A DNA stretch of 40,185 bases, from assembly GCA_002731735.1 (NCBI GenBank), contig PCCM01000143.1:1-40185 (forward strand). The letters are read 5' to 3'. Of this stretch, positions 30,001 to 40,185 are shown piece by piece (positions within the stretch are counted from its first letter, which is position 1; each line of letters opens with the position of its first letter). The stretch comes from Gemmatimonadota bacterium (lineage in GTDB: Bacteria; Gemmatimonadota; Gemmatimonadetes; Longimicrobiales; Gaopeijiaceae). A program made the position numbers.

Positions 30001-33000
30001 GATCTCGGCCCAGCCATCGTGAAGTCGCAGCAGCCGGTGACGCCGGCCTACGCACCGCCGGGACATGATCCGGCGGATGCGTGGCGCAAGGAGGCCGATG
30101 CGGCGGCGAACTCGTCGGTGTTTTTCCGCTCGGGCAACCAAGGCAAGGCCACCGCGCCGGTCACGGCGCAAGCCGCTGCGGCTGCGCCCGGCAGCGCCTT
30201 GGCGGGCTTCGACCCGCTGGCCGCTGGCCCGGCCTCGACGGCGGCCCAGCCATCCGACCCGACAGCCGTGCAGAACCGGCAAGACCAGAAAGAGGCTTTC
30301 CTGAAAGGCGGTTCTACGGAAACCCGCAATTCCGGCAATCTCCAGATGCCGGCCTCGCCGTATCAGGTCATGGCGGGAACGGGGATCGCGGGCGCGCTGG
30401 TGACGGGCATCAAGTCCGATCTGCCGGGCGACGTGATAGCCACGGTGACGGAGCCGGTCTATGACACGGCCACTGGCAAGTTCCTGCTGATCCCACAGGG
30501 ATCGCGCATCCTGGGCAAGTACAACAGCCAGGTGAGCTACGGGCAGAGCCGCGTACAGGTGGTGTGGAACCGCGTCATCCTGCCGGACACGTCCTCGCTG
30601 AAGCTAGACAACCTGGCGGGCACTGACCCTGCCGGCTATTCCGGCCTGGAGGATGGCGTCGATTGGCATTGGGATCGCGTCTTCGCGGGTGCGGCGCTGA
30701 CGACCCTGCTGGGCGTGGGTGCCGAGTTGGCCGCACCGGAAAACCGGCAGGATGGCAACCGCATCGTGATCGCTGGGCGCGATAGCGCGCAGGACAGCAT
30801 CAACCAGGTCGGCCAAGAGATGACCCGGCGCAACATGAACATCCAGCCGACGCTGACCGAGCGGCCGGGCCTGCCGGTGCGGATCATCGTCAACCGCGAT
30901 TTTGTGCTGCGGCCGTACCAGCCTATGTTCTTCAACCGTGGAATTGCGAAATGAACACCACCAGGAAGTTGCGGCTTGGGCCGCTGCCCAAGGTCGAGAG
31001 CGTCAAGCTGGCCTTTGCGTGCCCGGTCAGCCTGAAAGCCGACCTCGACCGTTACGCCGCGCTGCACGCGCAGGTGTACGGCGAAGCGGTCGATGCCACG
31101 ACGCTGATCCCGCACATGCTAGAGGCCTTCATGCAAGGAGACCGTGGGTTTCAGAGAAACAGCGCTAGTAAACACGCATTGCAAAACGCTGGTGGAGTAA
31201 CCATCTCCGGTTGCCGTACGCCGTGAGCTTTTTGGCTATGCGTGACCTAGGTTGCGGGAGTTGGCATCGCGGCTTCGAATTTCGAGGGCTGCAAGCGGTG
31301 GGGTGTGCTACAGGTGCGCCATTCACCCACCCGCCAAGTGCTTCAGTGCTTGTGGCCGCCCTGGGCATCGTGGCCAGCCGGCTGGGCGCTGGCGTTGAGC
31401 GCACGCACGGGAGCCTTCACTTCGACCGATTCGCGCTTGCCGTCCGGGCCCTCGATGACGAGGGTCAGAGGCACCGTGTCGCCTTCCTTCACCTGCTGCT
31501 TCAGGTCCATCAGCATCACGTGGTAGCCGCCGGGCTTGAGTTCCACGGTCTTGCCTGCGGGCAGCTCGACGGCCGGCACCTGGCGCATCTTCATCACGTT
31601 GTCCTGCATGGCCATCTCGTGGACCTCGACGGCGGGCGTAAGCGGCGAGCTGGCCGAGACCAGCTTGCTATTCTTGGTTGCCTTCAACTGCATGAAGGCG
31701 CCGGTGGCTTTCTGTTGCGGTACGGTGGCGCGCACCCAGGCATCTTTGACGGTGACTTGCGCCTGGGCGGTGGCCGCGAGCAGCGAGGCGGCGACGATGG
31801 CTGTGCGGATGACGAGTTTCATGGTGTTCTCCTTGAGGGGATAGAGGGTCAGGCAGGGTTCAAGAGCTTGCGGATGTCGTCCGCATAGTCTTGGGCGGGT
31901 TGCTCATGGCGCAGGGCCAAGCGCAGCTTTCCTAGCGGGTCGTAGACGTAGCTGAGCGATGTGTGGTCCATGGTGTAGGACGATCCCGTCGGCATTTTCT
32001 TGTAGTAGACCTTGAAGTCCTTGGCGATCTGTGCGGTGCGTTCCAGGTCGCCGTACAGACCGATAAAGCTGGGGTCGAATGCAGCCGTGTAGGCTTTGAG
32101 CACCTCGGGCGTGTCGCGCTCGGGATCGACCGTGACGAACAGTGTCTGGAAGCGCTCGCCGTCGGGGCCGAGAAGCCGCTTGACCTCGGCCGCCCGCGCC
32201 AGGGCCGTCGGGCAGACATCTGGGCACTGAGTGAAGCCGAAGAAGACCAGGATGGCCTTGCCTCGGAAGTCCGCCAGCGTGCGCTCATTGCCATCCGGGT
32301 CGGAGAGCCGGATGTCCGTGGCATAGGTTGCACCGGTCAGATCGACACCTTTGTACGTGGGGACGTCTCAGAAAACGGAAAATAAAGCACGTTAAGCCCA
32401 TTGCAGACGCTAGATATTGACGAGTACGTCGGGTTTTCTCTTGTTTGAGTTGCCTCTTGTGGTAAGATAGTAATCAATTACTATCTTACAAGGAGTGCTC
32501 GTGGACACCCATCCAAAGCATCTGCCGGCCGATGAACGTCGTGCCGTAACTGTCGAGTCCGTCGTGGCGCTTGCCGGTTCACAAAACCCAAGCGAGATAA
32601 CCACTGCAGCTATCGCTAAACACATGAACTTGACCCAGGGTGCGCTGTTTCGGCACTTCCCGAACAAGGAAGCCATTTGGCAGGCGGTCATGGAGTGGGT
32701 AGCAGAGCGCCTATTAGCCAGAATCGATCGATCCGCACAAGGAATCGAGTCGCCCTTGGCAGCCATGGAGGCGATGTTCATGAGTCATATCGAATTCGTA
32801 GCTGAGCACCCAGGCGTGCCAAGAATGATGTTTGGTGAGCTTCAGCGTGCCGAATCGACACCGGCCAAGCGCATGGTGCAAACCTTGATTCAGCGCTACG
32901 GCGAACGTTTGCATCGTCTCATCGAGAAAGGCAAGGCCAGCGGCGAGTTGTCTCCCTCGCTTGACAACGAGGCGGCGGCAACGCTGTTCATTGGCACGAT

Positions 33001-39000: not shown

Positions 39001-40185
39001 TTTGCTACTTGCGATTCCCTGGCATCTTCTTGGGCGTCGATGAACCTCCATTTCCGCCCCTGCTGCGCATGGTGGCCGCACAACTCAAGGTGCCGGTGGA
39101 AAGCTGGAACGATTACGGCCAGCGCGAGCAGACACGGCGGGAGCACTTGGTCGAGCTGCAAACGGTGTTTGGATTCAAGCCCTTCACCATGAGTCACTAC
39201 CGGCAAGCCGTGCATACACTGACCGAACTGGCCTTGCAAACAGACAAAGGCATTGTGCTGGCCAGCACCCTTGTTGAAAACCTGCGGCGGCAGAGCATCA
39301 TCCTACCCGCCATGAATGCCATCGAGCGCGCAAGCGCCGAGGCCATTACCCGTGCCAACCGGAGCATCCATGCGGCATTGGCCGATTCCTTGATACCTGT
39401 CCATCGCCAGCGCCTGGACGAACTGCTCAAGCGCAAGGATGGTAGCAAAATGACGTGGCTAGCGTGGCTGCGCCAATCGCCCGCCAAGCCGAACTCGCGC
39501 CACATGCTTGAACACATCGAACGCCTCAAAGCCTGGCAGGCGCTTGACCTACCTGCTGGCATCGAACGGCAGGTACACCAAAACCGCTTGCTCAAGATCG
39601 CCCGCGAGGGCGGCCAGATGACGCCCGCCGACCTGGCCAAGTTCGAGTCGCAGCGGCGTTACGCCACCTTGGTAGCACTGGCCATCGAGGGCATGGCCAC
39701 CGTCACTGATGAAATCATCGACCTTCACGACCGCATCATCGGCAAGCTGTTCAATGCGGCCAAGAACAAGCATCAACAGCAGTTCCAGGCTTCCGGCAAG
39801 GCGATCAACGACAAGGTGCGGATGTATGGGCGCATCGGTCAGGCGCTGATTGAAGCCAAACAAAGCGGCGGCGATCCGTTCGCCGCCATCGAAGCGGTCA
39901 TGCCGTGGGACACCTTCGCCGCCAACGTCACCGAGGCGCAAACGCTGGCGCGGCCTGCCGATTTTGATTTCCTGCACCATATCGGCGAGAGTTACGCCAC
40001 GCTGCGCCGCTATGCGCCGCAGTTCCTGGACGTGCTCAAACTGCGCGCCGCGCCCACCGCCAAGGGTGTGCTCGATGCCATCGACGTGCTGCGCGGCATG
40101 AACAGCGACAGCGCGCGCAAGGTGCCCGCCGATGCGCCAACCGCATTCATCAAGCCGCGCTGGGCAAAGCTGGTTCTGACCGACG

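Follow-up and report, generated by a model that had tools for sequence, protein, structure and literature searches.

What is the structure that begins at position 32359 in a 40,185-nucleotide stretch of DNA from a Gemmatimonadota bacterium (contig PCCM01000143.1; this whole stretch is called the window here), is it an intact mobile element, and what is the operon that it carries for? We consider it highly probable that the locus as a whole is explained by a 9,485-bp transposon of the Tn21 subgroup with a captured, TetR-controlled, detoxifying ABC pump. The features of the element are as follows, the domain calls being Pfam and NCBIfam matches above the curated cut-offs.

32359-32396, + strand: left terminal inverted repeat (IRL), 38 bp, Tn21 type (GGGG...TAAG), GGGGACGTCTCAGAAAACGGAAAATAAAGCACGTTAAG
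32462-32489, no strand: perfect 13-bp inverted repeat with a 2-nt spacer, found by repeat search; probable TetR operator
32501-33109, + strand: TetR/AcrR-family repressor gene, 202 aa (Pfam TetR_N and TetR_C_13)
33106-34257, + strand: periplasmic adaptor (membrane fusion protein), 383 aa, with an N-terminal membrane anchor (HlyD_D23; TIGR01730 RND_mfp)
34254-35459, + strand: MacB/FtsX-type ABC permease, 401 aa (MacB_PCD, PF12704, 63.9 bits; FtsX, PF02687, 60.2 bits)
35461-36171, + strand: ABC ATPase, 236 aa, a separate polypeptide (ABC_tran, 117.4 bits)
36200-36673, + strand: periplasmic class II c-type cytochrome, 157 aa, with a signal peptide and a C-terminal CxxCH (Cytochrom_C_2)
36660-38147, + strand: NodT-family outer-membrane efflux lipoprotein, 495 aa, lipobox LAGC (OEP; TIGR01845)
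38139-38277, no strand: res site, aligning with the Tn21 res region
38278-38835, + strand: tnpR, serine resolvase, 185 aa, TTG start (Pfam Resolvase and HTH_7)
38838-40185, + strand: tnpA, Tn3-family DDE transposase, 449 of 990 codons, cut by the window end (DUF4158, 188 bits)
Outside the window, in the sister genomes L004, L007, L008 and L011: right IR, CTTAGCGTGCTTTATTTTCCGTTTTCTGAGACGACCCC, identical to the tnpA-side IR of Tn21

Structure of the element and its transposition module

The segment from 32359 to 40185 is the left 7.8 kb of a Tn21-type transposon whose full length of 9,485 bp is given by sister genomes, and its order from left to right is the 38-bp IR, the six-gene operon, res, tnpR and the first 449 codons of tnpA. 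The preliminary description had assigned it to the Tn21 subgroup of the Tn3 family with the order passenger-res-tnpR-tnpA, and this assignment holds because the IRs, res, tnpR and tnpA are all homologous to those of Tn21; every feature that it had named was found where it had placed them. The IRL sequence is unchanged across all related copies and differs from the element's own right IR at 2 of 38 positions, and compared with Tn21 of R100 it has 2 mismatches to the tnpA-side IR and 4 to the mer-side IR. Complete 9,485-bp copies with a 990-aa TnpA are present in the same ICE context in L004 (positions 5700-15184), L007 and L008, with 99.97-99.985% identity over 13.5 kb; the comparison was made with the last 13.5 kb of the window, and when L011 is included the range is 99.0-99.985%. 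In the sister genomes the right end lies 1,658 bp beyond the window end, within the 1.6-1.7 kb that had been anticipated, and the right IR is present in L004, L007, L008 and L011, which speaks against a defective remnant without a right end.

Nucleotide homology to Tn21 begins at 38139, in res, and continues to the window end at 80.8% identity. The res blocks conserved with Tn21 are CCCTAACCTGATGTCAGATG, CGTCAG, TTTATTGACA and CCTGACATTTT, and a promoter-like TTGACA-17-TAGATT at 38218-38246 lies within res upstream of tnpR. The window TnpR is identical to that of L004 and has 80.1% amino acid identity to Tn21 TnpR; in plasmid copies of the element the 185-aa resolvase is annotated as WP_001162010.1. 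The tnpR gene is directly upstream of tnpA in the same direction, with its stop at 38835 and the tnpA ATG at 38838. All 449 TnpA residues in the window are the same as in the L004 copy, whose full 990-aa TnpA is 87.6% identical to Tn21 TnpA, and a full 990-aa TnpA with the DDE_Tnp_Tn3 domain was found in L003, L004, L007, L008 and L011. The Tn3 transposase model NF033527 scored 466.7 bits on the window portion, which is under its 500-bit cut-off, as expected when just 449 of the 990 tnpA codons fall in the window. Only 9 plasmids have a tnpA 3' half with at least 99% identity to it, the next group being at 92.5%. These comparisons indicate that the transposition module belongs to a lineage separate from that of Tn21.

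Tn21 itself (R100/NR1), the prototype of the subgroup, likewise has 38-bp IRs, the order res-tnpR-tnpA, passengers joined at res and 5-bp duplications like those seen in sister copies of the present element, and the two have 80.8% nucleotide identity over 3.7 kb. They differ in what they carry, the Tn21 passenger being mer and the In2 integron, whereas the present element has an ABC efflux operon and no Tn21 sequence upstream of res. Dozens of unrelated replicons, from many independent assemblies, carry the element in identical or nearly identical form, which rules out chance or an assembly artefact. By homology, therefore, the region is classified as part of a unit transposon of the Tn3 family, Tn21 subgroup. 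From what is known of this family, TnpA would bind both 38-bp IRs and bring about replicative transposition via a cointegrate, which TnpR would resolve at res, leaving a 5-bp target duplication; the data on the copies support this.

The passenger operon and its origin

The most likely start of tetR is the second GTG, at 32501, which is 5 nt after an AAGGAG ribosome-binding site. The palindrome at 32462-32489 overlaps a putative extended -10 promoter, TGnTAAGAT, that was read by eye and was not called by a strict consensus promoter scan. TetR would bind this 13-bp palindrome over the promoter and let go on binding a small molecule.

The preliminary description had read the passenger as a complete tripartite ABC exporter under TetR control, with a cytochrome and a NodT channel of its own, and Pfam or NCBIfam matches for all six genes bear this out. 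The genes are tightly packed: four of their junctions are overlaps of 4 or 14 nt, the latter between the cytochrome and NodT genes, and the remainder are 1-28 nt apart. The adaptor scored 172.8 bits against TIGR01730 (cut-off 94.9), and its best solved relatives are TriAB (E 1e-25), MexJ and MacA. The 'DevB' label that it had been given does not stand, because TIGR02971 (DevB) scored 21 against a cut-off of 129. A DevBCA-type glycolipid exporter was rejected on this score together with those of the permease for DevC (TIGR01185, 42.8 against 290) and of the ATPase for DevA (TIGR02982, 180 against 296). The permease had no significant match to any solved structure in sequence and profile searches of the PDB, and its AlphaFold model, built from 20 sequences that are all at least 91% identical, is poor (pLDDT 41.8, pTM 0.27). 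Among NCBIfam models the ATPase comes closest to LolD, DevA and the MacB nucleotide-binding domain, but it scores under the equivalog cut-off of each. The cytochrome scored 29.7 bits against PF01322 (cut-off 26.5) and matched class II cytochromes c in the PDB at E 3e-5; its predicted haem site, CLGCH, is 16 residues from the C-terminus, and members of its cluster carry the JGI name 'cytochrome c556'. Its gene product is thus assigned, by these matches, to the class II cytochromes c (c'/c556 type). The channel scored 356.5 bits against the NodT model TIGR01845 (cut-off 210).

Among named systems, MacAB-TolC of E. coli (type VII ABC) likewise consists of an adaptor, a permease with MacB-core and FtsX domains and an outer-membrane channel, but in the passenger the ATPase is unfused, and the operon also encodes a NodT channel, a TetR and a cytochrome of its own. 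Scores for the equivalog models of MacA and MacB stay far below the cut-offs (NF008606, 73 against 342; NF007826, 176.7 against 966, with the ATPase matched only). The passenger is therefore best classified as a tripartite pump of the MacB type (type VII ABC) that is not a MacA/MacB orthologue. A parallel for its vehicle, by description, is Tn5720 of the IncP-1 plasmid pB4, which is listed in the Tn21 subgroup with a resolvase. We take Tn5720 to carry a proton-driven RND-type tripartite efflux system that is mexCD-oprJ-like; in both cases a Tn21-type vehicle has a regulator and a whole envelope-spanning pump, RND there and ABC/MacB-type here.

Operons related to the passenger were found in the chromosomes of Thiobacillus denitrificans, Marinobacter and Herminiimonas, where they stand without IR, res or tnp genes, and the homology to these chromosomal operons covers window positions 32460 to 38137, with 32460 being the start of homology to the Thiobacillus operon. 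The T. denitrificans ATCC 25259 operon (CP000116, about 1.44 Mb) has the gene order TetR-adaptor-permease-ATPase-(97 aa)-cytochrome-channel, which is that of the passenger save for one extra 97-aa ORF, and its locus is without IR, res, tnpR and tnpA. Its tetR is frameshifted. Amino acid identity to the passenger is 93.5% for the permease, 94.5% for the ATPase, 52% for the cytochrome and 66% for the channel. These comparisons suggest that the source of the pump operon, taken up in its entirety, was a chromosomal operon type of Betaproteobacteria such as T. denitrificans. The captured segment would run from the promoter and operator through the last stop codon and would have been joined to the transposition module exactly at res.

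Insertion site, ICE context and distribution

The transposon lies just beyond the Trb module of a Tn4371-type ICE, of which the window contains the following features together with the left flank of the element.

869-3334: DUF3363 relaxase
18818-20878: TraG
29686-30954: TrbI
31343-31822, - strand: PCu(A)C copper chaperone gene, left flank, outside the transposon (PF04314, 134.5 bits)
31849-32358, - strand: SCO1/SenC gene, 5' end cut by the transposon insertion (PF02630, 149.4 bits)

Homologues of TrbE, TrbL and TrbG are also present, and the order relaxase, variable cargo, TraG and Trb genes is the Tn4371-type order of PMC2789088; no integrase or att site was found within the window. In Tn4371-type ICEs the usual cargo region is between the relaxase and traG (PMC2789088). 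The corresponding region of the window is 3.3-18.8 kb, and the transposon is instead located after trbI and DUF2274, in the SCO1 gene, so that the earlier placing of it 'inside ICE cargo' is not supported. Homology to related T4SS backbones ends near 31155, before the transposon, so that the insertion may lie either inside the ICE or beyond its end. No GTDB representative genome has this exact ICE-transposon junction, which was found in only two metagenome contigs, both with the same ICE context.

The SCO1 match starts 17 residues past the junction, at position 5 of the profile. The missing SCO1 5' end was not found on the other side of the element in the sister genomes, and no intact SCO1 homologue close enough for reading the original target site was found in plasmids. 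Every copy in the ICE context is bordered by TACGT at its left end and by TCCAT at its right end, and there is thus no 5-bp target duplication, the window copy being judged from the near-identical sister genomes. These flanks, the right flank being a 3'-truncated unrelated ORF and not the SCO1 5' end, raise the possibility that the element at this locus is an immobile remnant fixed by rearrangement, and enterobacterial copies, most of which have a shortened tnpA or an insertion of IS5075, IS4321 or IS26, point the same way. Loss of the duplication, however, does not disable a Tn3-family element, L004, L007, L008 and L011 keep both IRs, res, tnpR and the full 990-aa tnpA, and the 449 TnpA residues of the window match those copies exactly. 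We therefore regard an immobile remnant as improbable. The missing target duplication reflects the history of the insertion and not the identity of the element: a rearrangement beside the ICE copy would have removed it, with the element itself intact in near-identical genomes. The left flank TACGT is common only to pPRO2 and the ICE copy, and the outer 5-bp flanks that these two have in common might be due to a non-canonical transposition that carried donor flanks along. The Raoultella plasmid p117885-NR (L020, H7) was tried as a third sharer of TACGT, as its match begins 5 bp before the IR, but it was rejected because its flank is CATACT.

Elsewhere the element is frequent. Public databases contain it in thousands of genomes and plasmids. 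The passenger was detected in 190 plasmids of PLSDB, in 10 complete genomes of E. coli and in numerous Betaproteobacteria, and 18,773 blocks of the assembly collection encode precisely this TetR protein. The novelty of passenger and element that the preliminary description had implied is not compatible with these plasmid and TetR counts. In Beta- and Gammaproteobacteria its left end stands at no fewer than 25 distinct junctions, and at the three insertion sites checked at both ends the 5-bp target duplications are TTTTA (L002), TATTC (L003) and TAGCA (L005/L006). IS5075 and IS4321, which target Tn21-family IRs, are at or adjoining the ends of enterobacterial copies. Several copies in Enterobacterales adjoin pco copper-resistance genes. 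The element is an ordinary, widespread member of the Tn3 family, and few sequences of this kind are more common in public data.

Function of the pump, naming and significance

What the pump does can be argued from its genes and its contexts. We favor a detoxifying pump over dedicated secretion because the three chromosomal loci, in Thiobacillus, Marinobacter and Herminiimonas, have no neighbouring biosynthetic genes in common, because the operon has its own TetR and perfect palindrome, because the ATPase retains the standard ABC motifs GPSGSGKST, LSGGEQQR and ILADEP, and because the isolates with the element are largely from wastewater, manure and clinics. The ATPase and the MacB-type permease would power the export of a toxic amphiphile, taken from the periplasm or from the inner membrane's outer leaflet and passed by way of the MacA-like adaptor and the element's own NodT channel across the outer membrane, with the cytochrome as a variable accessory coupled to the channel gene. 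The simple efflux model leaves this cytochrome unexplained. Alternatively, the passenger would be a housekeeping-type exporter with a single conserved substrate, either endogenous or linked to redox processes (a porphyrin, haem, a lipid or a metal(loid) complex, for example), and the cytochrome would be its functional partner. Permease and ATPase have 90-94% protein identity at only 77-82% nucleotide identity between distant genera; this very strong conservation, tighter than expected of a broad-range drug pump, may reflect one specific conserved substrate. The cytochrome and channel genes overlap by 14 nt in T. denitrificans as they do here, and the permease weakly resembles LolC and the protein of PDB 7w78, which we take to be the haem exporter HrtB, at a non-significant E of 0.1-1. 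In Lactococcus the TetR-type haem sensor HrtR controls an FtsX-type pump, and MacAB exports protoporphyrin. On the other hand, the cytochrome is missing in Marinobacter and Herminiimonas and only 52% identical in Thiobacillus and is therefore not a core part, biosynthetic genes are not linked to the operon in any context, and the operon's frequent carriage by plasmids and transposons is what one would expect of an accessory trait selected from outside. A housekeeping exporter is thus unlikely, though it deserves some weight, and the detoxifying pump is the reading that we prefer.

Neither a published name for the element nor a study of the substrate of the pump was found in full-text literature, accession and protein-ID searches; the sources without a name or phenotype include PMC5142620, PMC7031209, PMC2789088, PMC3746432, PMC10232235, PMC7319535, the TnCentral preprint and PMC7157771 with its Table S1. 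There is nevertheless close to an even chance that TnCentral, ISfinder or a paper in a subscription journal already names or describes the element, perhaps along with a phenotype that has been tested. An element this abundant is likely to have been curated before, and a 2020 list of about 190 Tn3-family elements includes several entries of the Tn21 subgroup, namely TnShes11, TnShfr1, TnAs1, TnAs2, TnpEc158 and TnEcO26. The literature searches speak against an existing name, as does the labelling in RefSeq records, in which its transposase is merely a 'Tn3 family transposase' while that of Tn21 is 'TnAs3 family' and others are 'ISPa38 family', and no passenger protein has a specific name in the sources consulted for annotation. 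As a further point in favor of an earlier description, plasmid pRSB101 (NC_006385) carries a tripartite ABC multidrug system.

The element is ordinary rather than new, its pump is uncharacterised, and the finding leaves the known picture of Tn3-family transposition and ABC efflux unchanged. It is an example of a Tn21-type vehicle that would have captured a whole chromosomal operon at res, and the transposon that carries the pump is predicted to be active. There is a small chance that the passenger is an overlooked mobile resistance determinant, for a biocide, detergent, metal(loid) or antibiotic, whose conserved ABC core and coupled cytochrome make it a new functional subtype of MacB-type pump. 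If so, it would be a determinant that has already spread in clinical Enterobacterales plasmids and wastewater Betaproteobacteria and is missing from resistance-gene catalogues. The value of the finding is practical and not conceptual: a complete, self-regulated, envelope-spanning pump is present on a transposon in many wastewater, animal and clinical isolates, and if it makes its hosts tolerant of a chemical in wide use, resistance databases would be lacking a factor in co-selection.

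Structure, completeness and relation to Tn21

Every feature that the preliminary description had listed, namely the inverted repeat (IR), the pump genes, the resolvase and the transposase, was found in the window:

32359-32396: left IR, 38 bp
32501-33109, +: TetR regulator gene
33106-34257, +: RND_mfp/HlyD adaptor gene
34254-35459, +: MacB_PCD and FtsX permease gene
35461-36171, +: ABC ATPase gene
36200-36673, +: class II cytochrome c gene
36660-38147, +: NodT-family lipoprotein channel gene
38278-38835: serine resolvase gene, tnpR
38838-40185: Tn3-family transposase gene, tnpA, 449 codons, continuing past the window end

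The six passenger genes, all above curated Pfam/NCBIfam thresholds, are densely packed on the + strand; a gap of 130 bp separates the channel gene from tnpR, and tnpA begins 2 bases past tnpR. The G+C content of the element (56-63%) is lower than that of the adjoining conjugation genes (66-70%).

Chromosomes with the same context were traced through the window's exact channel protein, and they share the gene order TrbL, VirB8-like, CagX-like, TrbI, DUF2274, PCuAC, truncated SCO1 and then the transposon. In three sister genomes, L004 (CP090445.1), L007 and L008, which differ from the window's last 13,526 bases by 2, 3 and 4 mismatches, respectively, the element is 9,485 bp long with a TnpA of 990 aa and a right IR. 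The right end is thus expected at window coordinate 41843, 1,658 bp beyond the window, in agreement with the position predicted from the sequence alone, and in these genomes it is not missing. The structure is real, was correctly read and is complete in these genomes. In a variant in the same ICE context (L009 11489-13707, also L010), a 2.09-kb insert with genes for a PemK-type toxin, a small upstream ORF, a 180-aa ORF and a second resolvase lies between the channel gene and tnpR, an arrangement consistent with the exchange of modules at res and with toxin-antitoxin pairs adjoining res.

Homology to Tn21, taken from plasmid R100, starts at window 38139 in the res region and runs on through tnpR and tnpA with 80.8% nucleotide identity (TnpR protein 80.1%, TnpA protein 87.6%). 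Since this homology is accompanied by conserved blocks in the res alignment and by a right IR, in the complete copies, identical to the tnpA-side IR of Tn21, the element is a member of the Tn21 subgroup, yet of a lineage separate from Tn21. The res region also carries a sigma-70-like promoter, TTGACA-17-TAGATT, upstream of tnpR. Only 9 plasmids match the 3' half of tnpA at 99% identity or more, and the next group stands at 92.5%. In the RefSeq records examined, the transposase bears just the generic label 'Tn3 family transposase', and that of Tn21 the label 'TnAs3 family'. Efflux passengers have a precedent in this subgroup in Tn5720 of pB4, whose passenger we take to be an RND pump. Tn5720 is included in a 2020 list of Tn3-family elements. 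No published name or phenotype of the present element was found in the literature searched; the chance that it already bears a curated name is a little below even.

The conjugative element and the insertion site

By its gene content, the upstream part of the window is a Tn4371-type ICE:

869-3334: DUF3363 relaxase
4770-5573: response regulator, heavy-metal-type two-component system, cargo
6105-6989: sensor kinase of the same two-component system, cargo
8556-9848: adaptor of RND-type tripartite pump, cargo
9862-12957: AcrB-family pump of RND-type tripartite pump, cargo
13235-14569: channel of RND-type tripartite pump, cargo
18818-20878: TraG
29686-30954: TrbI, last of the Trb genes

The cargo thus holds a two-component system and an RND pump, the latter being the window's second tripartite pump (both within 4770-14569), as well as PAP2 and EptA-like genes. 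These last genes (14463-17008) are a PAP2 lipid A phosphatase-like gene and then an EptA-type phosphoethanolamine-lipid A transferase, which scores 563 bits with the generic model (cut-off 500) and 537 bits with the best specific model, the MCR-5 family (cut-off 1250). Both the transferase gene and the sequence that follows it fall in a part of the cargo with low G+C (48-52% over 15-18 kb); the gene is mcr-like and is carried by a conjugative element.

The usual cargo region of Tn4371-type ICEs lies between the relaxase and traG, with the Trb genes at the far end (PMC2789088). Since the transposon lies past TrbI and DUF2274, within the SCO1 gene, and homology to related T4SS backbones ends near 31155, the earlier placement inside ICE cargo is unproven, and the insertion may belong to an accessory segment at the end of the ICE or lie beyond it. 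Because the flanks in the sister genomes showed no target duplication at the ICE copy, and TCCAT on the right side leads into an unrelated ORF truncated at its 3' end and not into the SCO1 5' end, we read this site as a probable post-insertion deletion or recombination between two copies. The outer flanks TACGT (left) and TCCAT (right) are common to the ICE copies and the copy in the Pelobacter plasmid pPRO2 (window 32354-32358; pPRO2, L001, 4001-4005 and 13491-13495; L004 5695-5699 and 15185-15189). Outside these 5-bp flanks the pPRO2 and ICE copies share no homology, 121 positions distinguish the two 9,485-bp elements, and no further context sharing the flanks was found; for the number of pairs compared, the chance of such a match was estimated at ~1e-3 to 1e-2. 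On the right side of the transposon in the sister genomes, L004 15723-20282 encodes a LysR regulator, an ABC ATPase, a phosphonate-binding protein, a permease and a 2-hydroxyacid dehydrogenase, a set that resembles a phosphite oxidation cluster of the ptxABCD type.

Abundance, movement and decay

The passenger region occurs in 190 PLSDB plasmids, at 80% or more of its length in 45 of these; among the hosts are Citrobacter, Klebsiella, Enterobacter, Escherichia, Aeromonas, Raoultella, Providencia, Proteus, Shewanella and Pelobacter. Among 5,426 complete E. coli genomes, 10 contain 80% or more of it. Exact copies of the TetR protein are indexed in 18,773 assembly-collection blocks and those of the channel protein in 1,399, and the 90% clusters have 541-2,587 members. 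With such plasmid and TetR counts the sequence is already widespread, and the novelty implied in the preliminary description falls away.

The exact 52-bp left end is carried by 20 species-representative genomes, mostly Betaproteobacteria of sludge or water (Comamonadaceae, Rhodocyclaceae, Thauera, Zoogloea, Hydrogenophaga, Herbaspirillum, Laribacter), with 19 distinct left flanks; counting the other loci brings the distinct left junctions to 25 or more. Each of the three insertions examined at both ends is flanked by a perfect 5-bp duplication (TTTTA, TATTC and TAGCA), which together with the many junctions shows that the element has been mobilised many times by normal Tn3-family transposition.

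Most Enterobacterales copies are remnants, with IS5075 or IS4321 at or adjoining an IR and tnpA cut or deleted. These IS lie at or adjoining the element ends in L055 (3430-4434 and 12257-13261) and likewise in L020 (Raoultella plasmid p117885-NR), L023, L025 and L028-L030. No perfect left IR was found in L023, L025, L030 and L055, and insertion of an IS into that IR is suggested. In L025 and L027-L029 the remnant immediately follows pcoE of the copper-resistance cluster.

Origin and likely function of the pump

Three chromosomes carry related operons without IR, res or tnp genes. That of Thiobacillus denitrificans ATCC 25259 has the six genes in identical order plus one additional small ORF. 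The Marinobacter operon is limited to TetR, adaptor, permease and ATPase, and the Herminiimonas operon has two other small genes instead of the cytochrome. Since the Thiobacillus homology spans window 32460 to 38137, from the start of the predicted palindromic operator to 10 bases short of the channel stop codon, the left IR and res enclose an operon that was captured entire, control region included. The permease and ATPase (34254-36171 against L015, L017 and L019, the loci of Thiobacillus, Marinobacter and Herminiimonas) are 90-94% identical as protein and only 77-82% as DNA; protein identity is 76-85% for adaptor and TetR, about 65% for the channel and 52% for the cytochrome. The permease and ATPase are thus under purifying selection of a strength that is unusual in an accessory pump. 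In T. denitrificans ATCC 25259 the chromosomal tetR (L015 7249-7856) is frameshifted, with stop codons in straight translation, and is called as 43-aa and 139-aa pieces, so that the pump may be constitutively expressed there.

At 32462-32489 lies a palindrome of two perfect 13-bp arms separated by 2 nt, which ends 11 nt upstream of the start of tetR and shares bases with an extended -10 element, TGnTAAGAT; it would be the operator expected for a TetR that regulates its own gene. The ABC motifs of the ATPase are intact, the adaptor carries a membrane anchor at its N-terminus and has TriAB, MexJ and MacA as its best solved relatives, the channel has the lipobox LAGC, and no biosynthetic genes were found beside the operon in any context examined. 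Because of these features, we favor a ligand-induced detoxifying pump that would act like MacAB-TolC. A more specific substrate, to which the tightly conserved ABC core and the coupled cytochrome may point, is less likely. The pump is not a MacAB orthologue, as its equivalog scores fall far short of the cut-off and its ATPase forms a polypeptide of its own. The NCBIfam results also ruled out membership in DevBCA, and the DevB label first given to the adaptor is not borne out.

The element is, then, an ordinary, widespread Tn21-subgroup transposon with an uncharacterised MacB-type tripartite pump, its sequence is not novel, and the substrate of the pump is the one point that merits testing.
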